64,000 nt of DNA from Candidatus Saccharimonadales bacterium (lineage in GTDB: Bacteria > Patescibacteriota > Saccharimonadia > Saccharimonadales > UBA4665). A model generated the notes under the pieces. That model had not been told where the DNA came from. It ran no database searches and was given only the letters and a program-made list of their open reading frames with translations. Below are positions 1,673-60,860 of this stretch, in pieces (positions within the stretch are counted from its first letter, which is position 1; every line of letters begins with the position of its first letter). The stretch covers positions 75,059 through 139,058 of the forward strand of contig DATASD010000005.1 in the NCBI GenBank assembly GCA_036263915.1, in the 5' to 3' direction. The translations under genes were made by a program, and so were the position numbers.

Positions 1673-1686
1673 CGAGAATCACAGAT

Positions 1687-3654: not shown

Positions 3655-3657
3655 CCT

Positions 3658-3685
3658 TTGAAAAACGCGCCAGTTCTGGTACAAT
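3658..3685 (+). promoter_or_regulatory. sigma70-like promoter upstream of rpsL (TTGAAA-N16-TACAAT)
   Basis: TTGAAA at 3658-3663, a 16-nt spacer, and TACAAT at 3680-3685, about 100 nt upstream of the rpsL ATG. Confidence 0.45.
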
Positions 3686-3785
3686 ACCAAGTACAACATA
3701 AACAATCCGAGCCAGGGAGTCACACATGGACAAGAGTTGGCACTCGCCATGTACCCTGTTTGCGGGTAGATTGTAAGGAGAATTA

Positions 3786-4199
3786 ATGCCAACAATTAAT
3801 CAATTGGTTCGTAAACCACGTGCCAAAGTGACTGGCAAGTCAAAATCGCCAGCTCTTTTGAAGGTGGTGAATAACCTCAAGAATAAAAATTACCGCAAGC
3901 CTGCGCCATTCAAGCGCGGTGTTTGTGTTAAGGTCACCACCAAGACCCCAAAGAAGCCAAACTCAGCCTTGCGTAAGGTTGCACGTGTGCGCCTTGGTAA
4001 CGGCGACGAAGTGTGGGCTTACATCGGTGGTGAAGGCCACAACTTGCAGGAGCATGCAGTGGTGCTCGTACGCGGTGGCCGCGTAAAAGACCTTCCTGGT
4101 GTGCGCTACCACATCGTTCGTGGTGCACTCGACCTGCAAGGTGTTGCTAACCGCAAACAAGGCCGCTCGAAATACGGTGCGAAGAAGGAGAGCAAGTAA
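3786..4199 (+). CDS. rpsL: 30S ribosomal protein S12
   Basis: [12 protein letters not shown]...KRGVC...[12 protein letters not shown]...[27 protein letters not shown] are canonical S12 blocks. It carries an extra ~13-aa segment after PAL. Confidence 0.97.
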
Positions 4200-4678
4200 T
4201 GCCACGGAAAGTTACCAAAGCGTTAGTTCGCGACATTCAACCAGACCGCATGTATAACAGCGTTCAGGTTCAGCGCTTGATCAATCGCGTGATGCGCGAC
4301 GGCAAAAAGCAACTCGCTGAACGCCTCGTATACAACGGCATGCAGAAAGCTGCCGACAAACTCAAAGTAGAAAACCCACTTGAGTGCTTTGAGCAAGCGA
4401 TGAAGAACATTCAACCACATCTCGAGACCCGCTCTCGTCGTGTCGGTGGCGCAAACTACCAGATTCCATTCGAAGTAAAAGGCCAGCGTCAAAATCACCT
4501 GACAACCATGTGGTTCGTACAGGCTGCTCGTGCCCGCAAGGGTATCGGCATGGCTGACCGCATTGCTGCTGAGCTTATTGACGCCTTTAATAGCCAAGGT
4601 TCAGCTGTTAAGAAGCGTGAGGATGCGCACAAGATGGCTGAAGCCAACCGTGCATTCGCGCACTTCGCCCGAGGCTAA
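4199..4678 (+). CDS. rpsG: 30S ribosomal protein S7
   Basis: ATG overlaps the rpsL stop (TAATG). S7 blocks are present: RSRRVGGANYQIPFEV and ...AHKMAEANRAFAHF. Confidence 0.97.
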   Translation: MPRKVTKALVRDIQPDRMYNSVQVQRLINRVMRDGKKQLAERLVYNGMQKAADKLKVENPLECFEQAMKNIQPHLETRSRRVGGANYQIPFEVKGQRQNHLTTMWFVQAARARKGIGMADRIAAELIDAFNSQGSAVKKREDAHKMAEANRAFAHFARG

Positions 4679-4685
4679 GTTACAC

Positions 4686-5036
4686 ATGGCGGGCACTGAG
4701 CTTCCACTACAAGTCACTCATCCGGGGGCTCCGGACACTGATTTGATCTTTATTGATGGCCAGCGACCGCCGCACTTCGCAGTTATTAGAACTGCCGAGG
4801 AAGGCACAACGACCATGCTGACATCAGCCGGACTGTTTGATAGAGAAGGGCTCAACATCTTCTACCACCCAGACCCGATAGCTGATGAGGATAAAAATCG
4901 CCTCTACGAACTCTTAGGTCAACATCCGTATGCGGTTGATTTAGAAGCTTCTATTATAGGTGAGTATCCAGGAGGCGTTGTTGGTGCGGCGCATAACCTC
5001 GCGAAGTTGGTTCTCGGCTCTGAGCAGACTAAATAA
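4686..5036 (+). CDS. hypothetical 116-aa protein inserted between rpsG and fusA
   Basis: Open frame with an ATG at 4686, just after the rpsG stop ([10 protein letters not shown]...). The track ORF 4530..5036 extends upstream into rpsG, which is implausible. It fills an otherwise ~370-nt rpsG-fusA gap. Confidence 0.4.
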
Positions 5037-5050
5037 TTTTAAGGAACACT

Positions 5051-7135
5051 ATGGCAGGAAAATATAAGATCCAAGATCTCAGAAACATTGGTATTATTGC
5101 GCACATTGACGCAGGTAAAACCACGACGACCGAAGGTATTCTGTACCGCACTGGTCTAAAGCACAAAATTGGTGCTGTTCACGAAGGTGAAACGACCACC
5201 GACTGGATGGCCCAGGAACGCGAACGCGGTATTACCATCGTGTCTGCGGCCGTAACGTGCTACTGGAAGAACAAGCAGATTAACATCATCGATACCCCTG
5301 GCCACATCGACTTTACCGTTGAGGTGGAGCGCTCGCTTCGCGTACTCGACGGCGCCGTGGTTGTGTTCGACGGTAAGATGGGCGTGGAATCACAGTCCGA
5401 AACCGTATGGCGCCAGGCCGACAAGTACAATGTGCCGCGTATTTGTTTCATCAACAAGATCAACCAAACCGGCGGCGACTTCTACAAATCACTCGAGAGC
5501 ATCCACAACCGCCTAAGCAAACGCGCGTTCCCGATTCACCTGCCGATCGGGTTCGAGCAAAGTGTGAACGGTGTAGTTGACCTCGTAACTATGAAGGCCT
5601 ATAGCTATAAGGAATTCACCGACCACGAGCTGGTCGAGGGTGAGATCCCTGCCGATATGCTCGATGAGGCTAAGAAATATCGCAGCTTACTTATCGAAAA
5701 CGCAGTTGCCGAAGATGAAGCCTTGCTCGAAAAATTCTTCGAGGTTGGTGAAGAAGGTCTGACGGAGACTGAAATCAAGCAAGCTATTCGCAGTGCTATT
5801 TTACATGGCGACTTCTTTGCGGTAACTGGTGGCGATGGCCGTGGGGTGATCGTCGAAAAACTGCTCGACTTGGTCACCGAATTGTTGCCGAGCCCAATCG
5901 ACCGTGGCTCTACGTGGGGCACCCATCCTAAGAGCGGCGATGAGATTGAACGCAAATCAGACGAGACACAGCCATTTGCAGCGCTGGCCTTTAAGATCGC
6001 AACCGACCCATTTGTAGGTAAGCTTGCATACTTCCGCGTGTATTCTGGTAAATTGCAAGCCGGTTCATACGTACTCAACTCGTCGACTGGAGAAAAAGAG
6101 CGCGTGGGCCGCATCGTTCGCATGCAAGCCGACAAGCGTGAAGATGTTACCGAAGTTTCTGCTGGTGATATTGCTGCCATTGTAGGTCTGAAGGGTACGA
6201 CCACTGGTAACACCTTGTGCGACGTTAATAATCCGATCGTTCTGGAGAGCATTACATTCCCCGAACCGCCAGTGTCAATCGCTATTGAGCCAAAGACCAA
6301 GGCCGACCAGGAAAAGATGAGCATTGCCTTGCAGCGCTTGGCCGAAGAAGATCCAACCTTCCGTGTGAAGGTCGACGACGAAACCGCGCAAACGATCATC
6401 TCGGGAATGGGTGAGTTGCACCTCGACATCATTGTTGACCGTATGAAACGCGAATTCAACGTTGAGGCTAACATCGGTCAGCCACAGGTTGCCTACCGCG
6501 AGACGATTCGTAAAGATGCTGTCGAAGTCCAAGGTAAATTCGTCCGCCAATCTGGTGGTCGTGGTCAGTACGGTGACGTATGGCTACGCCTGAGCCAGAA
6601 CGAAGCCGGCAAGGGCTTCGAGTTCATCAACTCGATCAAGGGTGGTGTTATCCCTGGCGAATACATCAAGCCGGTCGAGCAAGGTATTGTCGAGGCCATG
6701 AACAATGGTGTTATCGCTGGCTACCCGGTAGTTGATATCAAGGCTGAGCTCTACGATGGTAGCTACCACGAAGTAGACTCCAGCGAAATGGCCTTTAAAA
6801 TTGCCGGCTCGATGGCACTACAAGAGGGTGTCCGCAAGGCGACCCCGACCCTCCTCGAACCAGTTATGAAGGTTGTTGTCGTTACCCCAGAAGAATTTAT
6901 GGGTGACGTCATTGGCGACCTCAATAGCAAGCGCGGTCGCATCGAATCGATGGAAGATCTGCCTGCTGGCGTCAAGGAAATCACCGCCTTTGTGCCGCTT
7001 GGTGAAATGTTTGGCTACACAACCAACTTGCGTTCTATGACGCAAGGTCGCGCCAGCTCAAGCATGGAGCTTGATCACTACGCCGACGTACCAAACAACG
7101 TTGCCGAGGCGATCATCGCTAAGCACGCTAAATAA
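5051..7135 (+). CDS. fusA: translation elongation factor G
   Basis: [21 protein letters not shown] and NKID-type (NKINQ) GTPase motifs. Full-length 694-aa EF-G architecture. Confidence 0.98.
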
Positions 7136-7151
7136 TAGGTACACGAGCACT

Positions 7152-7185
7152 AAAAGACGCCCAGAAACAAGGGCGTCTTTTTATA
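7152..7185 (+). terminator. Rho-independent terminator after fusA
   Basis: AAAAGACGCCC / loop / GGGCGTCTTTT stem followed by a T-run, 17 nt after the fusA stop. Confidence 0.7.
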
Positions 7186-7214
7186 TTGCGCTGGCGATGC
7201 GTGCGCTGTACACT
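7186..7214 (+). promoter_or_regulatory. candidate promoter (TTGCGC-N17-TACACT) for the chorismate mutase gene
   Basis: TTGCGC at 7186-7191, a 17-nt spacer, TACACT at 7209-7214. GAGGA RBS at 7215-7219 before the ATG at 7225. Confidence 0.4.
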
Positions 7215-7224
7215 GAGGACTACG

Positions 7225-7491
7225 ATGCAAGAACAGTACGACCTGGCAGAGCTGCGTCGACAGATCGACCGTGTCGATGAGCAGCTTGTCCAGCTCTTGA
7301 ATGAACGTGCCCGCTTATCGCTCCAAGCCGGCATCGCCAAGAACTGGAAAGATATCTATCGTCCGGAGCGCGAAAAACAAGTCGTGAGCCACGTAACGTC
7401 AGTCAGCAATGGCCCGCTTTCTAACGAAGCAGTAACTGAAATCTTTCAAAAAATTATAGAGATCTGTCGCGCCATTCAGCGCAATAAATAA
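7225..7491 (+). CDS. AroQ-type chorismate mutase (88 aa)
   Basis: LAELRRQIDRVDEQLVQLLNERARLSLQAGIAK...YRPEREKQV matches the helical AroQ CM pattern (R..ID.iD..l..Ll..R...). The ATG at 7225 has an RBS, so the track start at 7186 is unlikely. Confidence 0.7.
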   Translation: MQEQYDLAELRRQIDRVDEQLVQLLNERARLSLQAGIAKNWKDIYRPEREKQVVSHVTSVSNGPLSNEAVTEIFQKIIEICRAIQRNK

Positions 7492-8766
7492 CTACCAGTT
7501 GCCGCCCACACATTGAGTTGTACCAACTCGAATACCGTTTCGCTGTGACTGTCGTACGCCCTCGACGCCTTTTACCCCCATTGCACCGAGCGACCATAGG
7601 GCTGCGCGGTAGGTCTGCAACTCTTGATCTGTTTGAGCCGCCACTTCTGCGCGCTCTTGGTGGTGTGCTTCCATAAAGCGCCGGTAAAGCTCGGGCGATA
7701 CATTAGCGCCAGTGGTGAACGTGATATTTGTTGTTCGTGGCCCGCCAGCATGTTCCCGCAGGTATACCTCAAGTCCGGCACGAGAAAGCGCACCGGCTGG
7801 TTCAATATTTCGGCCATACCGTTTGCTAAGATACGCCATTGCACCGCCGACCTGACCTTTGCTAACCGTCATGATTGGTGTTTCGACGAGCATCGCCATA
7901 GTCAAGTTTCCAGGTATGGCGAAGGTGCCATCATTATCTGCGTCATAATTACCATTAGGAAACAAATCTTCGATTGACTTCCAGGGCCTTCCGGACGTAT
8001 AGTGCTGCGCGGCGCGGTTGGAGAGGTCGCCACCCGCCATTTGGACTCCGATAAGCTCTAGGTCGATATCGTTTAAGAGTCCTTGTTCGTCGGCATATCG
8101 GCGTGCCATCTCAAGCCCGCTAATAAGTCCGCCGCCGCCAACCGGCACAAGCCAGCGAACTTTGCCTACCACGCCGTGGTTGCGCATTGATTGAATCACC
8201 TCTAGGCCAAGCGTACCTTGCCCGGTAATAACGTCTGGATGGTTGTATGGTGGAAGAAAATGGTGACCGTCCTGTTCGCCGAGTTCTGTAGCGCACTTGA
8301 TCGCGGCTGTGATGTCGGTGTGTACAGCCTGTACATCGACGCCAAGGCTCGTCATATTGTCCATCTTAACGCCGCTTGCCGAGTCGGCTGTTTGTGCATG
8401 TGCCTTCACGCCGATTAAACGAGCCGCTAGACCGGCCGAAGCGCCATGATTGCCGGCAGTCGCCGTATCTAGGTCCGTAAGCGGCACGCCAGCTCGCTGA
8501 GCATGTAATTTAGCTTCGAGCGCAGCATTAATCGCTCCTCGATCTTTGTATGTACCTGTTGGGTTATCGATCTGGCTTACATCGTACACTGTGTGACCGT
8601 ACAATACGGGTGCTGGTTGCAGACGGGCTTCCTGAATATCTTCTTCCCGAAATAATAGATCTCGCCCGCACTCATAGAAAGCATCGAAGCGCGGCTTGAC
8701 CTCGCCATACAGCTCGCTGAGTGTAGGTACGGCGTCTGTTTGTATTGCTAATAATTCAGTAGCCAT
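7492..8766 (-). CDS. PLP-dependent fold-type II enzyme, threonine/serine dehydratase-like (IlvA-like)
   Basis: The PLP-lysine motif PTGTYKDRGA, the GNHGAS block and the glycine loop VGGGGLISG are present. The ATG at 8766 has a GAAGGA RBS 6 nt upstream. The alternative ATG at 8781 abuts the upstream hairpin T-run. Confidence 0.75.
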   Translation of the reverse strand: MATELLAIQTDAVPTLSELYGEVKPRFDAFYECGRDLLFREEDIQEARLQPAPVLYGHTVYDVSQIDNPTGTYKDRGAINAALEAKLHAQRAGVPLTDLDTATAGNHGASAGLAARLIGVKAHAQTADSASGVKMDNMTSLGVDVQAVHTDITAAIKCATELGEQDGHHFLPPYNHPDVITGQGTLGLEVIQSMRNHGVVGKVRWLVPVGGGGLISGLEMARRYADEQGLLNDIDLELIGVQMAGGDLSNRAAQHYTSGRPWKSIEDLFPNGNYDADNDGTFAIPGNLTMAMLVETPIMTVSKGQVGGAMAYLSKRYGRNIEPAGALSRAGLEVYLREHAGGPRTTNITFTTGANVSPELYRRFMEAHHQERAEVAAQTDQELQTYRAALWSLGAMGVKGVEGVRQSQRNGIRVGTTQCVGGNW

Positions 8767-45690: not shown

Positions 45691-45775
45691 GCAGGGATAG
45701 TGAAGCGGTCAAACACGGGTGACTGTAAATCATCTGGCTCAGCCTTCGGGGGTTCGAATCCCTCTCCCTGCACCA
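45691..45775 (+). tRNA. tRNA-Tyr (anticodon GTA), class II, discriminator A73
   Basis: Acceptor GCAGGGA/TCCCTGC, anticodon loop CTGTAAA, long variable arm, T-loop TTCGAAT, ACCA end. Confidence 0.88.
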
Positions 45776-51957: not shown

Positions 51958-53562
51958 CTACTCTGCGCCCTGCTGATTTCTACGATCTATATGAGATTGA
52001 ATTATCTCGTGGCCTCTGTCACTCCAGGCATCGTGGTAGTATTTGTCCACGAATGCAAATTGCTCGGGCGAAGCATCATAAAAAGATAGCGGTTTGTTAA
52101 GATACTGTGCTACGGCATCACACAGGTCTTCGCGCGCAATAAGATCTTTGTGCTCTTGTTGTTCGCGGTTCATCCTTCCATAAGCTGTCGTGGCAACATC
52201 GTTCGCACTATAAACGCTCTCCCATTCACGAAGCACTGCGATCGGCATACGCTCATTGTGCACGTGATGCGTCAATTCATGATCAAGTGCGCTATTTATT
52301 TTATCGTACAGTTCTTGACGTTGCTCTTTGAGTGTTGCTTCACCTACATGACCTTCGGACGCATTAATCTTGGCAAATTTCTCAAGCGGCACATTGATCT
52401 TAATCACTCTTTCTCCGGTCGCATAATCGCCACTCATTACCGCTACCCGTCCATCTGCTAAGACCTGAGGCTCGGCGATCCCGTCAACGAATTCAATAGC
52501 CGCAATCCCTTGAGTAAATTCACCAGGATGACGGATAAACCGGGTAGCAACCCAGGTCTCTGGATCGGCAATGCCCACCTCTTGCAACAAGTCAAAACCA
52601 CGAACTTTAATTCGATCAGTCTCGGTGCACCGTGTTGCATCAACCTGTTCGTCGTGCTCCCGCTGCAACTCCTCGGCCTTTTGCTCAGCAGCATGAGCCA
52701 ACGCCCGGACCGTCGGGTCTGTCGCAACAACAGGGCTTTCCTGGGTATGCTTTATCAAGTATTCAGCATTCGCAACAGTGTCATGGGGTAGTAATCCTTC
52801 TGTGTCCCTCTCGCGATCAGGCGACAGGTACTTTCGTATGTCAGCAGACTTACTATACCAATCATGGAACGCTTCGTCGGCACCTGGCGTGGGCTGCCAA
52901 TCTTCAGGAACCACAGCGGTTGCATCCGGCGACTGAAGGACATAGCCATGACGGGCAAAGGAATCCTTCACTTTGTGTACAGAAGTGCTTGCCTCCGTAG
53001 TCGTACGATAATCAAGCTCTGTGTAATCGGTGCCGCATACGATCATAACGCCACCAACTTCTGCCTGCAGGTCACCAGCAACGTATCCATCAACGACGCC
53101 GCGCCAATTGGTTATTGCATTGAGGTCGGAAAGATCACGGTCTAGCTGTTCGGGCGCTAGCTTATTCGCGACGGCAGCGAGGCCTTTTGCTTCTGCAACC
53201 CGTTGCTGCAACGCATCAATGACGTGCGAATCAATATCCGGGCGAGCCTCTTTGATTGCTCGCAAGGAAACTTCGCTAATTTCTAGGCCATCTGTACTAA
53301 TTGGCAGGTCTGCAATGCTTGCTTCGGCTATCTCGAGCGCCTCTTCATCGAGAGTATCTTGGAAGCTACCGAGCGCTTTATTGGTATCGTCTATGCGCCG
53401 CAAGACTTTCGGCAATTGATTGGGCGACGATTCAGGCGTTGCCGGCTCTGTGATTTCAATGTGTTCGGCTGGTGGTGTGTAGGCAGCCGGCGTTTCGGGC
53501 GTGGTAAACGCATCATATACATTAGGCAACTCGGACATGTTTCCACCGATCAGCTCTTTCAT
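51958..53562 (-). CDS. hypothetical 534-aa protein with an HExxH zinc-metallopeptidase-like motif near the C-terminus
   Basis: LDHELTHHVH (HELTH). Pro/Glu/Thr-rich N-terminus (TPETPAAYTPPAEHIEITEPATPESSPNQLP). No signal peptide or TM segment is seen. Confidence 0.55.
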   Translation of the reverse strand: MKELIGGNMSELPNVYDAFTTPETPAAYTPPAEHIEITEPATPESSPNQLPKVLRRIDDTNKALGSFQDTLDEEALEIAEASIADLPISTDGLEISEVSLRAIKEARPDIDSHVIDALQQRVAEAKGLAAVANKLAPEQLDRDLSDLNAITNWRGVVDGYVAGDLQAEVGGVMIVCGTDYTELDYRTTTEASTSVHKVKDSFARHGYVLQSPDATAVVPEDWQPTPGADEAFHDWYSKSADIRKYLSPDRERDTEGLLPHDTVANAEYLIKHTQESPVVATDPTVRALAHAAEQKAEELQREHDEQVDATRCTETDRIKVRGFDLLQEVGIADPETWVATRFIRHPGEFTQGIAAIEFVDGIAEPQVLADGRVAVMSGDYATGERVIKINVPLEKFAKINASEGHVGEATLKEQRQELYDKINSALDHELTHHVHNERMPIAVLREWESVYSANDVATTAYGRMNREQQEHKDLIAREDLCDAVAQYLNKPLSFYDASPEQFAFVDKYYHDAWSDRGHEIIQSHIDRRNQQGAE

Positions 53563-53601: not shown

Positions 53602-53609
53602 TCCGTTCC
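53602..53609. repeat. left copy of the 8-bp target-site duplication TCCGTTCC
   Basis: Identical octamer immediately outside each terminal inverted repeat (53602-53609 and 56315-56322). Confidence 0.85.
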
Positions 53610-53636
53610 GGCACTCCTCCCCCTACACCAAGTACA
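53610..53636. repeat. left terminal inverted repeat (27 bp) GGCACTCCTCCCCCTACACCAAGTACA
   Basis: The reverse complement of 56288-56314 is GGCATTCCTCCCCCTACACCAAGTACA, which matches at 26/27 positions. Confidence 0.85.
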
Positions 53637-53849
53637 GTATAGGAGTAATCATTAGTTTGTTGTAAATTCCACTTTATATACAAGACTTGATCAACTTTTG
53701 GCACTTAGATATAGTGAGTGCTAGTAGTCGAGGAGGAATCTGTAACACCGACGAACACTAACAACTTGTTACCCATAAAAGAGTATCTATAAGCGCTAGT
53801 GGTCTCACGTTACAGAGCCACTATCGCCTACAGGTACTTTTTAATTTTT

Positions 53850-53938
53850 GGAGGGTTGCAGGAGCGGTTTAACTGGACCGTCTGTAAAACGGATTTTCCT
53901 TAGCGGAAACGTGGGTTCGAATCCCACACCCTCCGCCA
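53850..53938 (+). tRNA. class II tRNA with anticodon GTA (Tyr) but discriminator G73 (Ser-like body)
   Basis: Manual fold. Acceptor GGAGGGT/ACCCTCC, 3-bp D stem CAG/CTG, anticodon arm ACCGT-CTGTAAA-ACGGA (27:43 A:A mismatch), long variable arm TTTCC-TTAGC-GGAAA, perfect T arm GTGGG-TTCGAAT-CCCAC, then G + CCA. Confidence 0.6.
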
Positions 53939-53953
53939 CTCCAGTTCTTATAT

Positions 53954-53995
53954 AAATAATCCCCGAATGTAATGAGCTTCGGGGATTATTTATTT
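53954..53995 (+). terminator. strong Rho-independent terminator after the cargo tRNA
   Basis: AAATAATCCCCGAA / 10-nt loop / TTCGGGGATTATTT, followed by ATTT. Confidence 0.7.
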
Positions 53996-54079
53996 CCTTA
54001 GCGGTTCAATCGGTGATGATTGATACTTCAATCATATATTGATACACGCGCGACTGTCAATATACGCTGCAAACAAGCA

Positions 54080-54215
54080 TGGTATAATAGTATTTGTCTA
54101 AGCAGGTAGCAGCCTTTTATTTACATTTGAGAATGGGCAACCCCTCTCGAAAGTAGTGGATGTAAATCTGCTATCGGCTTAGACAACCTCAGAGACGGGG
54201 TTGTCCTTTTTTATT
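54080..54215 (+). promoter_or_regulatory. extended -10 promoter plus structured ~125-nt leader with a terminator/antiterminator (riboswitch-like, class unknown)
   Basis: TGgTATAAT at 54080-54088. Closing helix TTGTCTAAGC (54094-54103) / GCTTAGACAA (54177-54186). Inner helices AGCAG/CTGCT and ATTTACAT/ATGTAAAT. Terminator GACAACC (54182-54188) / GGTTGTC (54199-54205) plus T-run. CAACCCC (54138-54144) can alternatively pair with GGGGTTG (54197-54203). Confidence 0.5.
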
Positions 54216-54234
54216 TTTAAAGACTGGAGATATC

Positions 54235-54420
54235 ATGTCTGTACAAGTGCCCTGGTATAAACGACGGTTACCTGGAAAAGTTCTCTTACCACTATCAATT
54301 ATATGTTTCGCGTTGTGTAGATTTGTACCATTCCTAATAATTCTTGCTCTTATGCTATTAGGATTTGCAATCGTAGCACCATTTCAGAATCGAAAACGAA
54401 ATAAACGGTTTGTAAGATGA
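54235..54420 (+). CDS. small membrane protein (61 aa, about 2 TM)
   Basis: GGAGA RBS at 54226-54230. Hydrophobic core LLPLSIICFALCRFVPFLIILALMLLGFAIVAPF with a basic C-terminus. Confidence 0.5.
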   Translation: MSVQVPWYKRRLPGKVLLPLSIICFALCRFVPFLIILALMLLGFAIVAPFQNRKRNKRFVR

Positions 54421-54620
54421 GGATAGTTCGTGATGTCATCTTATCGTTCTTCGCAGGAGGAGCGTTATTTTTAATCGTAGGAGCGTTAGCCGATATATTG
54501 CCAACTCTTATGCGTAGGGCTCATTCCTTACCGCTTGTAGGTATATGGGTGATCTACCTTATCATTGGTGGCTGTATCGTGAGTGCATATAATCGTTTTT
54601 CACCTAAAAAAGAAGAGTAA
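54417..54620 (+). CDS. small membrane protein (67 aa, about 2 TM)
   Basis: ATGA overlap with the previous ORF. Hydrophobic segments VILSFFAGGALFLIVGALADIL and LVGIWVIYLIIGGCIV. Confidence 0.5.
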   Translation: MRIVRDVILSFFAGGALFLIVGALADILPTLMRRAHSLPLVGIWVIYLIIGGCIVSAYNRFSPKKEE

Positions 54621-54687
54621 TCGCTTAGTCTACTTGACAGAATCCTCCTAGTATGATACTATGTACCTAGTTTAGAGAAACAAAAAC

Positions 54688-55557
54688 GTGAAGTACACCG
54701 TACGAAATCTACGGGAGGACTTTCCAGATGAAGATGCGTGCCTTTTGTGGCTCGTAGAGTATCTTTTTCCGGATGGTATTACCTGTAAAATCTGTCAGAA
54801 AATAACCAAACATTACAAGGTCACCGGACGAAAAGCCTACGCCTGTAGTCGCTGTGGTCACCACGTGCATCCGACTGCCGGTACGATCTTTCATAAGTCA
54901 CGGACACCGTTAAGCCTGTGGTATCACGCGTTCTACCTTATGAGCACTAATAAGGCGGGGACGAGCGCAGCGCAGCTTCAGCGAGAGATTGGCGTGACGT
55001 ATAAATGTGCTTGGCGCATGATGCATCAGATACGTACCCTTATGAATACTGACAGACAGCTTTCTGGTGAGGTTGAGGTAGATGAAACGTATGTTCATGC
55101 GAACGTTTACAAACGAAGTACCGCCCAGAAACGCTACGGACGAACTGGTCAGCGAGCCGGACAAGTTCTTTTCGGAGCCGTAGAACGTGGTGGCCGAGTC
55201 AGGATATGGCACGTGAAGTCAGCTGGTGCTCGAGTACTACAGCCGCTGATCCGTAAGAACGTCAAAGAAGGTACTCTCATCCATACGGACGGATATAGAG
55301 CTTATCGGAGATTGCCCCAAATGGGTTTTGGTCATCGCTGGACCGATCACGGTCGCGGTGAATACTATACTGAGGACAGCTACACGCAGAATATTGAGAA
55401 TGTCTGGTCGCACTTCAAGCGGGGTATTAAGGGAGTGTACCGTCACGTCGATAACAAGTATCTACAAGCCTATGCGAATGAATACGCTTGGCGCTACAGC
55501 AACCGGAAGAAACCAAGTATGTTTTGGAGTTTGATGTGCCAAATATCTATATCTTAG
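54688..55557 (+). CDS. IS1595-family transposase (Zn-ribbon + DDE domain)
   Basis: N-terminal C..C...C..C zinc ribbon (CKICQK...CSRCGH), helix-turn-helix-like SAAQLQREIGVTYKCAWRMMHQIR, VEVDETYV, HTDGYRAY, and NIENVWSHFKRGIKGVYRHV..KYLQAYANEYAWRYSNR. Confidence 0.9.
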   Translation: MKYTVRNLREDFPDEDACLLWLVEYLFPDGITCKICQKITKHYKVTGRKAYACSRCGHHVHPTAGTIFHKSRTPLSLWYHAFYLMSTNKAGTSAAQLQREIGVTYKCAWRMMHQIRTLMNTDRQLSGEVEVDETYVHANVYKRSTAQKRYGRTGQRAGQVLFGAVERGGRVRIWHVKSAGARVLQPLIRKNVKEGTLIHTDGYRAYRRLPQMGFGHRWTDHGRGEYYTEDSYTQNIENVWSHFKRGIKGVYRHVDNKYLQAYANEYAWRYSNRKKPSMFWSLMCQISIS

Positions 55558-55558
55558 T

Positions 55559-55864
55559 CTAATTACCATGGAGAGACTTAATTTGAGATTGTATATCTTT
55601 TATCTGAGTCTGAAGATTATTATATTGGTTCTGCGAAATGCTTGTATTCTCTTTATATATTTCATAATTTGCATGAGATTGATCTACGTACATATTGAAA
55701 GTAGCAATAACCATAGTTACCATTGCCACTCCTACAACAATTAATACTGCATAAATGAGAAAATCATGTTGTTTGAATTTTGAATCAGTCTTAGCCGCAA
55801 AGGCAGACCCAAGGTATCTTTCTCCTTCGGCAGGAGTTGGTACTGGCGTAGGGGCACGCCGCAT
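55559..55864 (-). CDS. hypothetical single-pass membrane protein with a Gln/Asn-rich coiled-coil-like tail
   Basis: The TM segment FLIYAVLIVVGVAMVTMVIATF is followed by NQYNNLQTQIKDIQSQIKSL. Confidence 0.45.
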   Translation of the reverse strand: MRRAPTPVPTPAEGERYLGSAFAAKTDSKFKQHDFLIYAVLIVVGVAMVTMVIATFNMYVDQSHANYEIYKENTSISQNQYNNLQTQIKDIQSQIKSLHGN

Positions 55865-55867
55865 TTG

Positions 55868-56083
55868 TTAATAAACTCCCGTAATTACTTCTGTGCCGTC
55901 TTTCTTTTGCACTTCCAAATCTCTACCAGTATATTGAAAAAGATCAAATCCGCTAAAAGTGACCCCTTGCTGTATTTTCTGCCCGGGTTCTAAAATAAAT
56001 CCCCCAAGGCTTACACGAACTATGGGCTGAATCGTGCCATCGGGATTAACTTGAAATATTTTCCAGAAAGATATACGTGACAT
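55868..56083 (-). CDS. hypothetical 71-aa protein
   Basis: ORF 3 nt upstream of the previous minus-strand ORF. Beta-rich-looking sequence with no motif recognised. Confidence 0.4.
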   Translation of the reverse strand: MSRISFWKIFQVNPDGTIQPIVRVSLGGFILEPGQKIQQGVTFSGFDLFQYTGRDLEVQKKDGTEVITGVY

Positions 56084-56287
56084 TATGTTTGAGACGTACC
56101 TTTGTTCATATCAATATATTACCATAGCTATGCAGATCAATATGAAGATATATATTTGATTTATTTTTTATTCTTCGGAACAACTTTTCCTAAAAATCCC
56201 TTAAATTCCTCTTCGGTTAGCTGCTTAATCTTCGGTGTTTGTTTCTTTTTCGGCATACCTTTAGTTTAACAGGTTGGGTTATTTCCT

Positions 56288-56314
56288 TGTACTTGGTGTA
56301 GGGGGAGGAATGCC
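56288..56314. repeat. right terminal inverted repeat (27 bp) TGTACTTGGTGTAGGGGGAGGAATGCC
   Basis: Reverse complement of the left TIR with one mismatch. Confidence 0.85.
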
Positions 56315-56322
56315 TCCGTTCC
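56315..56322. repeat. right copy of the 8-bp target-site duplication TCCGTTCC
   Basis: Identical to 53602-53609. Its last base is the first base of the stop-codon complement of the 56322..56633 gene. Confidence 0.85.
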
Positions 56323-56633
56323 TAGTAATTTGGGAGCGAACGGAGCATACGCCGCATATCTTCGAATATGTGCCAGAACTCATCTGCATCATCGACGCTC
56401 ATATAGCCGCCCTCACGACTGCGTACTTGCCAAAGCATTTCCTGAATCGATTTTATACGGTCTTCGAGACTTCGCGGGCTCTTCGCCATTTCCATTTCAT
56501 CTTCCAAGCGCTTTACCTCACGAACAAGCGATTGAGCATCGCCATCCTGCGGTCGGTCAAGAGCATCATGCACGCGAAACTCCATGTTGCGTACCTGCTT
56601 ATAAAGTGGTTGATAGCTTGCATCCATATCCAT
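56322..56633 (-). CDS. hypothetical 103-aa charged helical protein
   Basis: AGGAG RBS 6 nt upstream of the ATG at 56633 on the minus strand. The overlapping plus-strand ORFs lack an RBS and look compositionally non-protein-like. Confidence 0.6.
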   Translation of the reverse strand: MDMDASYQPLYKQVRNMEFRVHDALDRPQDGDAQSLVREVKRLEDEMEMAKSPRSLEDRIKSIQEMLWQVRSREGGYMSVDDADEFWHIFEDMRRMLRSLPNY

Positions 56634-56750
56634 ATTGGCTCCTGTTTTGGCCTAGGCATAGTATAAATTTATACGCGCAGCAGTCAAGGTTGCGGGGTTT
56701 TATAATGAGTGCTAGACTGGGGTTTTATTACGTATGTAGTAGGAGTGTAT

Positions 56751-57185
56751 ATGAAAGAAACCGGACCAGCGCTACCCCCAGAATCTGATCCTACCAGCAG
56801 TGGCGAAATACCAAATCTGCCAGCAGTGAGTTTAAACCTGCGCGACTTTATAATACGAAAAGACCCTGGAGAGATCACTACTGACCCCGAGGAAAATTCT
56901 GCAATCAGGCCTATACCTATAATATCTATAGAGGACATTCCTACAGGCGACGAAACCCCCGATGCATCAACCTCGTTGCTTTCCAGAGAGATCATAACTG
57001 ATATCCAACCTGAGCCCGAGGTTACCTGTAACTACGATTGGGGACCCACCAGAGAACTTATCAAAGCATTGTATCCCGAACCCGCACCGCAAGGTGATAA
57101 TGAATCATCACTCGCCTACACTCTGCGGCTATTACATCACGCCGAGGGTCGCGACTGGGATCAAAACGGTTTGACCGAAGAATAA
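56751..57185 (+). CDS. hypothetical acidic Pro-rich 144-aa protein
   Basis: TATAAT at 56701-56706, AGGAG at 56741-56745, ATG at 56751 (MKETGPALPPESDP...). Confidence 0.55.
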   Translation: MKETGPALPPESDPTSSGEIPNLPAVSLNLRDFIIRKDPGEITTDPEENSAIRPIPIISIEDIPTGDETPDASTSLLSREIITDIQPEPEVTCNYDWGPTRELIKALYPEPAPQGDNESSLAYTLRLLHHAEGRDWDQNGLTEE

Positions 57186-57223
57186 GAATATTCGTACTAT
57201 TTAAAGGTTAAGGAGAAAACGCT

Positions 57224-57496
57224 ATGGAAGGTAAATCATTTGGCCAAGAATTTCAAGAAAAACCACAATTGCCTGTAGTGCCGGAAGGCGCCAGCGATGC
57301 GTACGACGTGACTGCGCAAGGCGACCCTGGGGAGTTTATTGCCGAGGGTACCGTTGAAGATGAAGATGGTCATGAAGTCACAATATTTACTAACAAGGAT
57401 GCCGGCGAAACTGCCCGTGACTTCAATGACTTTTTAGAGGAACGCGGACTGCACGGCTTTATTACGCAGAAAGAGGTCCCTGGCCAAGAGGGTTAG
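57224..57496 (+). CDS. hypothetical acidic 90-aa protein
   Basis: AAGGAGAA RBS before the ATG. Same-strand operon context. Confidence 0.5.
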   Translation: MEGKSFGQEFQEKPQLPVVPEGASDAYDVTAQGDPGEFIAEGTVEDEDGHEVTIFTNKDAGETARDFNDFLEERGLHGFITQKEVPGQEG

Positions 57497-57513
57497 GGTA
57501 GAAAGAACACATC

Positions 57514-57840
57514 ATGATGGAAGGCAATCGAGACATACCGCAACAACAAGATTTCGGCGGAGCCGATCTCGCTAATGTTATACCTAGTCTTCCCGACCTT
57601 GTTGAAGGTGTTGGGGAGATAACAGAAACCGCTTACGATGAGCACCGTGCCAGAGAGGAAGGTGACGACAAACCTGAGATGGTTACCTGGTCGTGTCACC
57701 TCGGCTCGGATATTCCCTCTGAGCGAGAAATTAGATGGCGCAATGCTTGGCGCTCGCAGCTCGGCTTACCACTACTCGATTACCAAGAGGAAGTTGATAA
57801 GGCCCGTAAGACTTGGCAGGGACCAGAAGCAGAAGCATAA
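57514..57840 (+). CDS. hypothetical acidic 108-aa protein
   Basis: ORF 17 nt after the previous stop, on the same strand. Confidence 0.5.
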   Translation: MMEGNRDIPQQQDFGGADLANVIPSLPDLVEGVGEITETAYDEHRAREEGDDKPEMVTWSCHLGSDIPSEREIRWRNAWRSQLGLPLLDYQEEVDKARKTWQGPEAEA

Positions 57841-57868
57841 CGGCAACAATCAGTAGCAGGGTACATGC

Positions 57869-58219
57869 ATGTCTGAATTACCACCACTCCAACAGACCTC
57901 ATCAGAGCTTCCCCAGTTGATCGAACCGCCCGATCCATCTTTTTTGGTATCCCAAGATGCAGAAGGCAATTTTATTCAAGAGTCGTCCTCCGAAGACAGC
58001 GAAGAAACACCTCCACCCATTGTAAATGGATATATCGTTGATACGGCACATGTGTTTATTTGTTGTGGTGAGAGTGCGGAAGATTACGTGCAAATGGCAC
58101 GGGATTCGTTCGTAGACCACCTAAACGAAGGGAAATTTAACGTCTGTTTGTATAATATGCTCTCTCCTGAAGACAAAGCTGCCCTTGCGCCATGGGCTCA
58201 AGGGATAGAAAACCTGTAA
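57869..58219 (+). CDS. hypothetical acidic 116-aa protein
   Basis: ORF in the same operon-like series. Confidence 0.5.
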   Translation: MSELPPLQQTSSELPQLIEPPDPSFLVSQDAEGNFIQESSSEDSEETPPPIVNGYIVDTAHVFICCGESAEDYVQMARDSFVDHLNEGKFNVCLYNMLSPEDKAALAPWAQGIENL

Positions 58220-58222
58220 ACA

Positions 58223-60070
58223 ATGCGTGAAACGTACGGCACCCCCGAACAGGCACAGCAGTTGCCATCAGCTTACAGTACCCAATCGATGCCCCTGTCT
58301 GATGTCAATGTAGAGATCACTGATTCTTACGTTGTGGCCAGCGACAGCTCAGATAAGCCTTTTACCCACGTTCCATACGATGAAACCCGTAGTGAGTTTG
58401 AATCTGCCCAGCCGCCAGAAGCAAGTGTTGGCGGCAATAGCGATAAGCCGCCCACCGATCGACCTCCCGAAAATGTCCCAGCGGCAAACGAACCACCTGA
58501 ACGCCCGATAACAGATCCAGCGTTGGCAGAGCTACTCGTGCAAAATGCTGCATTGCTTGGTTCCGAAAAACTCGACCATCTGCTCGCCCATCACGCTCGA
58601 TTCGATCGACCCTCGTCGTTTCGGGACGAGTTTGGGAATTTCTCTGAAGATCGACATAGACGCAACAGGGAATTTCTCGAGCACGTCCCTGGCTTTATGG
58701 CCGCGGCCGAACAAGCCGCTGTACCGCAAGAGCAGGCTCAGGAACTGCTAGAACATACACTCGACAATGTGCAGAACCCAAAGCTGAACATTCAGGGAAG
58801 TGCCAGGATCACTGCATTGCTTGCTAAAACATTTGCAGCAAGCGGAGAAAATTCCCTGACGGAACAAAATCTAGCGCAACTCAAAACACTCATCTCAACC
58901 GTGAGCGAAGATAATGTTATTCCGCACACTCTTGAAACTCTCGAGGCAGCCCAAAAAGCCGGCCTTAGCCTAGAGGATAGCATGCAGCTCGTGGACGGCT
59001 ACTTTCAGACGAGCAACGGCCGCCAGGTATACGAGCATATGGATTCTTTCCGTGAAGCCTTGCGCACACTACATGTCGCCGGCGTCGATCCACAGCTCGT
59101 CAAAGACGTCTTCCAGACATTTGACCAGATTGATCCACAATACCGTCACGAAGTATACGACGATTTGCGCGCACTCATAACCAATGGAGCAAGAGTATAC
59201 GATATGAAGCCCGAGGCCGTTTTGCGGGCGGCGCTGCATGAGGTGAACGACGAGACCGATATCGAACACGCACTCGGAAAAGTCGTAGAGCGGCAACAAA
59301 AAGGAACCCGTGTAGAAGGCAGCGAGCCGGGCATTTCCACACCTCGCGAGCGAATAGACAATCATTTTATCCAGAAGGGCGGCCAACTGGAGCATGCCGC
59401 CGTGCCGTATCAAACAAACCGTTCGCTCGAAGAAGGCCTATCCGACATCAAGGAGCTGACCGGCGCCGAACGGTATTTTGGCGACGTCGTTGCAGAAGGA
59501 CACTGGATATTTGATCCACATACAGATACATGGTACTCCTTTGGTGGCGAAACAAAACGCGACCCAGTAACGCGTACTACGTCTCATACGTCCCAAAAGT
59601 TTGACGTAAGCGAACTCAGTGATACGCCATACGATTTTCACATTCACCCAACCGATAACGAAAAGATCGCCGATCGCTACGGTCATATATTTCCATCTAA
59701 TGCCGACTTCAAGACAGCCGCTACTATGCTAGACGATGCAGGCAACACCGTGTCGTTGCGTTCGTTTATTTCCCATCGCTACGGCATAACAGAGTTTACC
59801 TACCCGGCGGATACGAACGCATTACGCGAAGCCGGCGAGCATTTTGAAACCTTGCGCGATGCATATTTCGAGCAGTGCATTGGCGATGAATACGACGTCC
59901 TCGCAACCGCGCGCCACATGGGTGATCCGGAGTTCATTCGTGCTATCGTGGCAGACATTAATAGCCATCTACCTGAGACCTTTGCTATAAAAATACACCC
60001 GCACGGCACTAATCTTGGTGAGATCGTTCGGCCTGAGTTGGAAGCGCCGCCTGACCGTCAAGACCCTTGA
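58223..60070 (+). CDS. hypothetical 615-aa protein with a C-terminal JAMM/MPN-like motif
   Basis: Pro/Glu-rich N-terminal ~100 aa. The C-terminal FHIHPTDNEKIADRYGHIFPSNAD contains HxHP...PSxxD (59639-59707), with a longer spacer than in classical JAB/RadC domains. Confidence 0.55.
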   Translation: MRETYGTPEQAQQLPSAYSTQSMPLSDVNVEITDSYVVASDSSDKPFTHVPYDETRSEFESAQPPEASVGGNSDKPPTDRPPENVPAANEPPERPITDPALAELLVQNAALLGSEKLDHLLAHHARFDRPSSFRDEFGNFSEDRHRRNREFLEHVPGFMAAAEQAAVPQEQAQELLEHTLDNVQNPKLNIQGSARITALLAKTFAASGENSLTEQNLAQLKTLISTVSEDNVIPHTLETLEAAQKAGLSLEDSMQLVDGYFQTSNGRQVYEHMDSFREALRTLHVAGVDPQLVKDVFQTFDQIDPQYRHEVYDDLRALITNGARVYDMKPEAVLRAALHEVNDETDIEHALGKVVERQQKGTRVEGSEPGISTPRERIDNHFIQKGGQLEHAAVPYQTNRSLEEGLSDIKELTGAERYFGDVVAEGHWIFDPHTDTWYSFGGETKRDPVTRTTSHTSQKFDVSELSDTPYDFHIHPTDNEKIADRYGHIFPSNADFKTAATMLDDAGNTVSLRSFISHRYGITEFTYPADTNALREAGEHFETLRDAYFEQCIGDEYDVLATARHMGDPEFIRAIVADINSHLPETFAIKIHPHGTNLGEIVRPELEAPPDRQDP

Positions 60071-60860
60071 GGTCGTCAACATCCACGCCTTGCGCCCATA
60101 GCATCTCAAAAAATGCACGTTGTGTTTCGGTGATTTCCTGATTCGCAATTTCGATGCCAAACACTTCGTCGTCGTGCCAGTTATAGTAGGCCGTAACATT
60201 ACCGTAGATGATGGTCGAATGCGTAATTTTAAATACATCATCAGGGACAAATCGTGATCGCCAAGACGCAAGGCGCTCGTTGGAGTGGTCACGATACCAT
60301 TGCTGCTGCGTTTTAATAAAATGATCACCGATAATACCGCGGAAGGTGATGCCCGCCTCGTTGCACGTGCGCGCCCACCGCTCAAAAAAACTTTGCTTAG
60401 TGCGGCTCTGCATGTTCTCATAGAGAATAGAAAGGTTTTCACCTGAAGCCTTAGTTTGATTCCATACCATCTGTTTTATACCTTCAAGACCTTGGAAAAA
60501 CTGTACACGTGTCGCCGGCGACGACAGCACATCACCATTTAAAAAGTTATGCAATGAGGTGAGCTCGGTCTGCAGGTCACGGAGCTCTTGCTCTTTTTTG
60601 CTAATAAGGATCTGTAAGTTCGTAATTGGTGCAGCGCGCAAAATGCTGTATTTGTTATGCACCTCGATCTCTACAAGACCACTATTTTTCAGAGTATCAA
60701 AGAGCCGATAAATGCGTGTACGCTCTACGCCAGAATTTCTGGCAAGCGCCGAGATTGATTGCGGACCGTAGGCGTGCAACGCCAGATATATATCAGCAAC
60801 TTCGGATTCAAGGCCAAGCTTATAAAAATAGGATCGAACAGCACTTGTATCTGCCAGCAT
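60009..60860 (-). CDS. TrmB-family transcriptional regulator
   Basis: LGLESEVADIYLALHAYGPQSISALARNSGVERTRIYRLFDTLKNSGLVE (winged HTH, TrmB-like) plus a C-terminal domain. The 3' end overlaps the convergent 58223..60070 gene by 62 nt. Confidence 0.7.
   Translation of the reverse strand: MLADTSAVRSYFYKLGLESEVADIYLALHAYGPQSISALARNSGVERTRIYRLFDTLKNSGLVEIEVHNKYSILRAAPITNLQILISKKEQELRDLQTELTSLHNFLNGDVLSSPATRVQFFQGLEGIKQMVWNQTKASGENLSILYENMQSRTKQSFFERWARTCNEAGITFRGIIGDHFIKTQQQWYRDHSNERLASWRSRFVPDDVFKITHSTIIYGNVTAYYNWHDDEVFGIEIANQEITETQRAFFEMLWAQGVDVDDLKGLDGQAALPTQAERSHQD

Follow-up and report, generated by a model that had tools for sequence, protein, structure and literature searches.

Evidence for a passenger-carrying IS1595-family insertion sequence with a tRNA gene and a structured RNA in a Candidatus Saccharimonadales chromosome

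A stretch of 64,000 nucleotides from an uncultured Candidatus Saccharimonadales bacterium (contig DATASD010000005.1, hereafter the window) was analysed around positions 53602-56322, where an original prediction made from the letters alone had placed an insertion sequence (IS) of the IS1595 family. Coordinates are those of the window unless one of the loci collected for comparison (L numbers) is named. Between the outer edges of two terminal inverted repeats (TIRs) lie 2,705 bp (53610-56314), which contain a transposase gene, a tRNA gene, a structured RNA and several small open reading frames (ORFs), flanked on both sides by a target-site duplication (TSD). We conclude with high confidence that this is a passenger-carrying ('transporter') IS of the IS1595 family, probably ISNwi1-like, which has moved recently and belongs to a group with tRNA carriage as a trait. 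The features are as follows.

53602..53609, no strand: left TSD copy TCCGTTCC (direct read; single copy in the empty-site contig L061)
53610..53636, plus: left TIR GGCACTCCTCCCCCTACACCAAGTACA (repeat search; identical in the sister element L002)
53637..53849, plus: conserved left-end region (92% identical to L002)
53850..53938, plus: cargo tRNA, anticodon GUA (Tyr), class II, encoded CCA (ARAGORN; Rfam tRNA 50.3 bits, threshold 29)
53952..53993, plus: perfect 16-bp hairpin after the tRNA with A-rich/T-rich flanks, terminator-like in both directions (repeat search)
54080..54088, plus: putative extended -10 element TGGTATAAT within the conserved block AAACAAGCATGGTATAAT (conserved in L020, partly in L002)
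54094..54218, plus: structured RNA of ~120 nt (folding; compensatory changes in window, L002 and L020)
54235..54420, plus: 61-aa membrane protein with a PWYKR motif, stop overlapping the next start (ATGA) (ORF)
54417..54620, plus: 67-aa hydrophobic protein (ORF)
54634..54662, plus: promoter-like site of the transposase gene, TTGACA-17-TACTAT with TG (consensus match; region conserved in L002)
54688..55557, plus: intact IS1595-family transposase, 289 aa, GTG start (Pfam, residue alignment, NCBI name)
55559..55864, minus: 101-aa protein, one membrane segment and a coiled coil at its C-terminus (60% to a 98-aa ORF of L020, E=2e-42)
55868..56083, minus: 71-aa protein paired with the 101-aa gene (4 homologues)
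56161..56256, minus: lysine-rich ORF of 31 aa, directed inward from the right end (similar MPKKK... ORF at the same place in L002)
56288..56314, minus: right TIR with one mismatch, T for C at position 5 (repeat search)
56315..56322, no strand: right TSD copy TCCGTTCC, last base within the stop codon of a 103-aa gene

Ends, transposase and family placement

The TIRs were recovered by a repeat search where the original prediction had put them, with arms of 27 nt (53610-53636 / 56288-56314) that match at 26 of 27 positions and are 96% complementary. A direct read on both sides gave the identical octamer TCCGTTCC abutting the arms externally (53602-53609 and 56315-56322), as expected from the predicted 8-bp duplication. 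The 27-mer had no further match in the 64-kb window at 3 mismatches or fewer, and 0 in 100 shuffles. The multi-gene cargo that had been described is also all present, that is, the tRNA, the hairpin, the structured leader, the 61/67-aa ORFs and the minus-strand 101/71/31-aa ORFs. The proposed AT-richness of the interior applies to the cargo (GC 0.36-0.44, with 0.47-0.54 in the flanks) and not to the transposase gene (0.47-0.51). Other kinds of element were considered and set aside: a compound (composite) transposon, as only one transposase gene and one TIR pair are present, and an integrase-type island at a tRNA gene, as no ORF has a recombinase domain. The repeats are also not those of a tRNA-derived island, the tRNA being complete and internal and the flanking 8-bp duplication unrelated to it.

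The assignment of the transposase to the Zn-ribbon/DDE type was borne out by Pfam, with DDE_Tnp_IS1595 (PF12762) matching at 4.3e-38 over profile positions 1-152 of 153 and Zn_ribbon_IS1595 (PF12760) at 1e-9 in the N-terminus. In an alignment of 10 sequences, reaching down to 32% identity, C33, C36, C53, C56, D132 and D201 are invariant and E237 is nearly so; K244 (NIENVWSHFK, from E237) and E265-x3-R269 (NEYAWR) are also kept. The NCBI record of the protein (HEX3568379.1; region locus tags VHT70_01740-01760) is named 'IS1595 family transposase', and the closest transposases in public genomes likewise belong to Saccharimonadales.

Scans with the transposase yielded 19 loci in public genomes and metagenomes, corresponding to 17 distinct elements besides that of the window. 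These loci have GG... TIRs (mostly GGnnnTTATCCC), perfect 8-bp TSDs and lengths of 1.6-4.3 kb, and a further 28 boundary-defined relatives with perfect 8-bp duplications (1.3-3.6 kb) were found in IMG/VR viral contigs. Since most of these relatives well exceed the minimum of ~1 kb, passenger DNA appears to be the norm among them. The TIR of the window element reads GGCACTCCTCCCCC, and ends of the form GGCAC(C/T)CCTCCCC are shared by it and its closest relatives, in contrast to the GGnnnTTATCCC of most relatives. With regard to viral contigs, a scan with a single protein gave no transposase relative and exact IMG/VR scans for the TIR core gave no match, but a profile scan detected relatives of 33-64% identity in more than 560 IMG/VR contigs, and 28 of the best 80 viral loci (L076-L155) have clean GGnnnTTATCCC ends with perfect 8-bp duplications. 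On these two counts, IS1595 elements appear to be common residents of phage genomes.

In the passages of PMC8101967 that deal with the IS1595 family (summarising Siguier, Gagnevin and Chandler 2009), its marks are an 8-bp duplication, a Zn finger, the DDE_Tnp_IS1595 domain and GG termini, and the Zn ribbon is given as absent only in the IS1016 group. The TIR of the window element starts GGCACTCC..., i.e. with the GG required for IS1595. ISApl4 of the IS1016 group has the family, the 8-bp direct repeats and GG-starting TIRs in common with the window element (PMC12561309), but it is only 712 bp long with the transposase gene alone (PMC12561309), and as an IS1016-group member it is expected to be without the Zn ribbon (PMC8101967). 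Also, ISApl4 moves cargo only as a flanking pair, in a pseudo-compound transposon (PMC12561309), unlike the window element in which the cargo lies inside a single element. A closer likeness is to ISNwi1-type elements, with which the window element shares D, D, E, K(+7) and E-x3-R, GG ends, an 8-bp TSD and one transposase gene accompanied by passengers, and from which it differs by its tRNA gene and structured RNA passengers; its TIR reads GGCACTCCTCCCCC where most relatives have GGnnnTTATCCC. That ISfinder subgroup is characterised by DDEK and E-x3-R, ends of the form ggnnatTAT (GGnnnTTAT), passenger genes and a length of 1.7-4.8 kb, a range that includes the size of the window element. The kind of IS is already known; what sets this one apart is the recurrent identity-mismatched tRNA cargo, the exchangeable modules and the conserved RNA.

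Alleles at the insertion site

Population contigs were retrieved by look-ups of the flanking proteins. One of them, a 17.2-kb metagenome contig (L061; JGI 3300036803, Ga0376678_0000579), contains precisely the empty site that the original prediction had proposed to search for, ...CAATGTTCCGTTCCTAGTAAT..., with a single TCCGTTCC. Its positions 1-126 correspond to 56440-56315 of the window and its positions 119-7770 to 53609-45958, the two matches overlapping by 8 nt. We take this empty site as real because assemblers would not collapse a repeat of only 8 bp. In another contig (L004) the same site is filled by an element identical to that of the window at every base, with differences solely in the flanks; a frameshifted transposase, which the 171-aa gene call of this contig could indicate, was rejected, as the DNA is identical to that of the window and only the start call differs. 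Three metagenome contigs end exactly at 56315 and one at 53609, which are the outer TIR edges with the octamer included, and such breaks are explained by assembly graphs that branch where empty and filled alleles coexist.

A third allele is the sister element L002 (1564-4492 of JGI 3300036803, Ga0376678_0010507), which occupies the same site with the same octamers and 27-bp TIRs. Its left end is 92% identical to that of the window element over 238 nt and its transposase gene region ~90-92% identical at the DNA level. The cargo is different: the GUA tRNA is replaced by a tRNA-Thr(AGU), with the homology lost 2-3 nt ahead of the tRNA start, the 61/67-aa pair by a 214-aa secreted-type protein, and the minus-strand 101/71-aa pair by plus-strand 72/84-aa ORFs. 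L002 and the empty allele L061 come from one metagenome, and one flank haplotype is common to L002, L004 and L061. The element is therefore mobile, and its site is polymorphic, with the empty form, the window element and the sister element in one population.

Alternatively, the gene block could be fixed in place and the 27-bp repeats on either side of it be a shared regulatory or structural motif rather than the ends of a mobile element. The window does hold one copy of the repeat pair and one genomic site is known, but this reading is hardly credible in view of the precise empty site with a single octamer in the same population (L061), the intact IS1595 transposase between the repeats, and the dozens of relatives having the same GG... 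ends and perfect 8-bp duplications at unrelated sites.

The presence of two different elements at one site could result from two independent insertions into a preferred target, or from an exchange of interiors by recombination between related elements. The coexistence of the empty allele with both filled alleles would suit two insertions, as would the fact that the interiors (~92% identical or unalignable) diverge far more than the flanks (>99.5%) and the identity of TSD and TIRs in the window and L002 elements. Against this, the TSDs of the 17 relatives show no consensus by which two insertions would be steered to an identical 8-bp target in a genome of ~1 Mb. Also, gene conversion could make use of the homology in the conserved left end, the transposase gene and the right end, and cargo modules are demonstrably reshuffled between elements. 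Two independent insertions are therefore unlikely in our estimation, and because the TSDs of the relatives lack a consensus we think that interior exchange is the more likely of the two.

Some observations weigh against the interpretation of 53610-56314 as a mobile, passenger-carrying IS of ISNwi1-like type. The exact element is known at one insertion site only, and its exact transposase protein is recorded only there. As there is one known site and no second copy in the window, transposition to new sites is deduced from the presence/absence polymorphism. Simple transposition is also insufficient to account for two different elements at one 8-bp site when the relatives' TSDs lack a target consensus. 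Three relatives (L065, L066 and L069) have recognisable ends without a matching TSD, the ISNwi1-like label is provisional, and the function and expression of the cargo are deduced, its promoters and terminators being consensus matches. As to the three relatives, GGCA(C/T)... ends surround a transposase gene and a tRNA in each (L065 3890-6819, L066 49-2887 and L069 2783-5056) and the flanking 8-mers are unmatched; inter-copy recombination, assembly across repeats or misplaced ends are possible causes.

By the mechanism established for the family, the Zn-ribbon/DDE transposase would bind the two 27-bp ends and join them to the target at cuts staggered by 8 nt, the repair of which would yield the TCCGTTCC duplication. 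The cargo may be organised in self-contained expression units: a left-end promoter with the tRNA and the terminator hairpin; a promoter with the ~120-nt structured RNA, its U-tract and the two small membrane proteins; and the transposase under a promoter of its own, followed by the 71/101-aa pair that is also found in phage. Very few mobile elements have been characterised in this phylum and genetic tools are almost lacking, so that a clean, fully bounded and polymorphic IS is of interest there even if it is routine as an insertion sequence; a native transposon system for Saccharibacteria could be built on its ends and transposase.

Cargo tRNAs of the window element and its clade

The cargo tRNA is preceded by an inward promoter-like site found in a promoter scan (TTGATC-17-TATAGT, 53687-53715) and a leader of ~135 nt, and it is most likely expressed, judging from consensus matches to a promoter and a terminator. 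By the identity rules established in E. coli, canonical bacterial tRNA-Tyr has the anticodon GUA, A73 and a variable arm of ~13 nt, G73 with a long variable arm is the serine pattern, and seryl-tRNA synthetase does not read the anticodon. The cargo tRNA departs from the canonical bacterial tRNA-Tyr in that GUA occurs together with the discriminator G73 and a 17-nt variable arm having a 5-bp stem. A canonical chromosomal tRNA-Tyr(GUA) with A73 is also present in the window (45691-45775), and the two match in 58 of 89 alignment columns. On comparison with E. coli by blastn, the chromosomal tRNA-Tyr matched the tRNA-Tyr of that species and the cargo tRNA gave no match. The identity of the cargo tRNA is 71% to serU and 64% to tyrU, a difference that is only suggestive of a Ser-like body; the chromosomal tRNA-Tyr is closest to tyrU.

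The carriage of tRNAs is not limited to this copy. Among the elements whose ends could be placed and whose transposase is at least 64% identical to that of the window, 7 of 9 have tRNAs inside the ends. These are the window element (GUA), L002 (AGU), L065 (UGC), L066 (GUU), L069 (ACU), L009 (AGC, between 96-nt TIRs with TSD TTTGTACC) and L020 (two tRNAs, GUU and GGA, with TSD GGCTGCCT); the ends of L008 and L058 were placed with no tRNA inside. An Uhrbacteria element (L014/L027, transposase 42% identical) also has a tRNA, with anticodon UGA. Taken over the Candidate Phyla Radiation (CPR) clade, 8 of 10 boundary-defined elements have a tRNA versus 0 of 39 such elements elsewhere, i.e. in other lineages and viral contigs (Fisher P=1e-7), none being found inside the ends of the 28 boundary-defined viral-contig relatives. 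This count excludes L021, L055/L056, L060, L076 and L026, for which no TIR pair was definable and the nearby tRNAs were left out. In terms of density, there are 8 tRNAs in 27 kb inside nine Saccharibacteria-clade elements versus 6 in 107 kb of flanks (Poisson P=1.8e-4). The trait is thus heritable in this CPR clade of IS1595 elements and not an accident of one copy. At 3 CPR loci chromosomal tRNA genes lie within ~1 kb of the element, suggesting capture of neighbouring tRNA genes as the origin; this most likely source would have been followed by reshuffling of the modules through inter-element recombination.

Departures from the usual identity elements recur in the clade. The AGC tRNA of L009 is without G3:U70 and the GGA tRNA of L020 is without the long arm. 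Adjoining the transposase of L060 is an 88-nt class II tRNA (4655-4742) that is Ser-like with G73 and has the anticodon CUU (Lys). C33 replaces the near-universal U in L020 (5997-6072), L069 (2889-2964) and L060 (6891-6967 and 7246-7320), the loops reading CC-NNN-AA, and anticodons with A in the first position, which are unusual for bacteria, occur among IS-associated tRNAs (ACU, AUC, also AGU and AGC elsewhere). These odd features fit either decay or selection for non-standard tRNAs.

The cargo tRNAs may take part in decoding, may be spares or decoys against tRNA-cutting enzymes, or may be decaying. A passive, decaying hitch-hiker, taken up from a chromosomal or phage tRNA gene nearby and conferring nothing, is a possibility that we hold tentatively and somewhat below even chances, with G73 beside a Tyr anticodon and, in relatives, C33, the missing G3:U70 and the Ser anticodon without a long arm as the first steps of pseudogenisation. 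The cargo tRNAs score 47-67 bits, all over the Rfam tRNA threshold, as compared with 62-70 for the neighbouring chromosomal ones; they often have mismatched identity elements, a canonical tRNA-Tyr(GUA) is already present in the host, and chromosomal tRNA genes near the relatives would make capture easy. Nevertheless a full cloverleaf is found in all and an encoded CCA in nearly all (not in L014), and each is followed by a terminator-like hairpin. The trait also persists across transposases that are 64-73% identical and in the Uhrbacteria element at 42%, and the window element and L002 keep the promoter-bearing left end while the tRNA is swapped as a unit.

Phage tRNAs have been proposed, and sometimes shown, to counter anticodon nucleases, an example being tRNA-Tyr against retron-Eco7 PtuAB (PMC10264068, PMC11555353). 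Like the cargo tRNA, phage tRNA genes are extra, host-redundant and diverged with altered loops, a Tyr anticodon included (PMC10264068, PMC11555353); unlike them, the carrier here is a DDE insertion sequence with 1-2 tRNAs per element and no arrays. By analogy the cargo tRNAs may be functional spares resistant to tRNA-cutting toxins or defence nucleases, with a benefit in phage or in the attacked cell. Relatives do occur in phage-like contigs (e.g. L065 with an SU10 adaptor gene, besides the more than 560 in IMG/VR), the 71/101-aa pair of the cargo recurs in a phage contig, and C33 alters the anticodon loops of L020, L069 and L060. We consider this role doubtful all the same, as neither the window nor the loci yielded a tRNA-targeting nuclease, tRNAs are absent from the 28 boundary-defined relatives in viral contigs, and a tRNA of mismatched identity would not restore correct decoding.

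A more far-reaching proposal, to which we give a low probability, is that of a CPR (possibly also phage) IS1595 clade with functional tRNAs as standard equipment, some of them anticodon-switched, together with a new structured regulatory RNA. Since seryl-tRNA synthetase ignores the anticodon, Ser-body G73 tRNAs with a Tyr (window) or Lys (L060) anticodon would put serine at other codons or be nuclease-resistant spares or decoys. If this is true, the element would move translation-altering tRNAs by transposition, in combination with the RNA. More generally, if ISs regularly move tRNA genes, some of them of mismatched identity, between the tiny CPR genomes and perhaps their phages, this would be a previously unrecognised route for altering the tRNA set of a cell, possibly linked to the tRNA-centred arms race of phages, and it could mislead assessments of genome completeness or genetic code that rely on tRNA complements. 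A search of the open-access literature found nothing relevant on IS- or transposon-borne tRNA genes or structured RNA passengers, an absence that is not proof of novelty.

Structured RNA, protein cargo and host locus

Past the tRNA terminator, the conserved block with the putative extended -10 at its end is followed by the structured RNA, in which a long hairpin (arms 54094-54112 / 54168-54186; leader 54094-54186, z=-4.1) encloses an inner helix (54122-54128 / 54160-54166). A crossing long-range helix of GGGCAACCCC (54135-54144) with GGGGTTGTCC (54197-54206) is followed by a U-tract. Counterparts are located at 6173-6310 of L020 and about 3990-3818 of L002 (minus strand), and when each RNA was folded alone the ~90-nt hairpin gave z=-5.0 in the window, -5.6 in L020 and -5.7 in L002. 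Pairing of the inner helix is kept as UUUACAU/AUGUAAA in the window, AUGUAU/AUACAU in L020 and CUUACGCC/GGCGUAAG in L002, and that of the crossing 10-bp helix as GGGCAACCCC/GGGGUUGUCC, GGGCAGCCGC/GCGGCUGUCC and GGGCGACCUU/AAGGUCGCCC, respectively. These compensatory changes were read by hand, as MAFFT put two of the three RNAs out of register in helices P1b and P2. Several of the pairs are G-U and form only on the plus strand, which argues for RNA rather than DNA as the conserved molecule. Given the short linker, the two crossing helices are probably mutually exclusive, as in a terminator-based switch.

Terminator riboswitches and attenuators offer the closest comparison, since here too an RNA follows a promoter and precedes a cargo ORF by ~15 nt, with crossing helices and a GC-rich stem with a U-tract. 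Unlike them, the RNA has no Rfam match and no conserved core resembling a ligand pocket was identified: within 54094-54218, Rfam 15 (T-box and riboswitches included) gave no match at E<=1. The matches at E<=1 besides tRNA, namely His_leader, plastid 3'UTR and Ysr49, were rejected as sub-threshold chance matches, and two matches inside phage coding sequence from scans with the promoter block were judged to be chance as well. Some 210 nt separate the RNA of L020 from the next ORF, which would suit a small RNA acting independently. Type I toxin-antitoxin systems combine a small hydrophobic toxin and a structured leader with a cis- or trans-antisense RNA; small hydrophobic ORFs and a structured leader are present here, and in L002 the same leader precedes the 214-aa secreted-type protein instead. 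On the basis of three sequences we regard the conserved RNA, borne by insertion sequences, as a possible new cis-regulator or small RNA, and hence a candidate for a new class of regulatory RNA.

Among the proteins, that of 61 aa is 38% identical to a 61-aa ORF of L020 (E=7e-10); the 67-aa ORF has no family match, and no homologue of it was seen in the related elements. A search of 5.8 billion proteins gave only 4 homologues of the 71-aa protein (70-100% identity), and an AlphaFold model of it, based on these 4, reached a predicted local distance difference test score (pLDDT) of 44. In L020 its homologue lies beside the 98-aa homologue of the 101-aa protein, on the opposite side of the transposase gene as compared with the window. 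The pair also occurs in a 12.3-kb phage contig (L070; Logan SRR14194042), where 6001-6539 encode the 71-aa homologue and then a 107-aa counterpart, with no transposase. Tail, collagen-like and small holin-like genes immediately precede it, so that it occupies the usual lysis/accessory position, and tape-measure-like, collagen-like and NinG genes, together with the lack of a transposase, place the gene pair in a phage. A lysine-rich stretch, MNKKPKKPTKKQF..., near the right end of L065 resembles the 31-aa ORF when read by eye. For the 61/67/101/71/31-aa ORFs and the cargo of L002 and L020, no convincing match was obtained from Pfam, PHROGs or PADLOC. The element L009, at 2680-6951 of a Saccharibacteria metagenome-assembled genome contig (CAZHPF010000007.1), is 4,272 bp long with 96-nt TIRs that are 99% identical, and its cargo comprises a SocA/Panacea antitoxin-domain protein, an ImmA/IrrE-type metallopeptidase, a secreted-type protein and the AGC tRNA.

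At the host locus, the insertion lies directly 3' of the stop codon of the 103-aa gene, with the last octamer base within that codon, and both neighbouring genes are intact. On the other side is a 534-aa HExxH gene with its own promoter-like site on the minus strand (TTGAAA-17-TATAAT, 53598-53570; 11 of 12 consensus positions), and the insertion is 3 nt upstream of the -35 hexamer, leaving this site intact. The original prediction spoke of a split two-gene operon. Its spacing agrees with the empty contig L061, in which 46 nt separate the end of the 103-aa gene from the HExxH gene downstream; the operon itself is conjectural, as the spacer has a promoter-like site, and because that site is kept the HExxH gene may never have needed read-through. 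No Pfam family was found in the genes near the insertion, namely the HExxH gene (51958-53562), the 103-aa gene (56322-56633) and ORFs of 90-615 aa (56700-60400), and the region may be a variable or accessory part of the genome. The TTGAAA-17-TATAAT site ends 7 nt before the ATG of the HExxH gene, and so short a distance suggests a leaderless or nearly leaderless mRNA.

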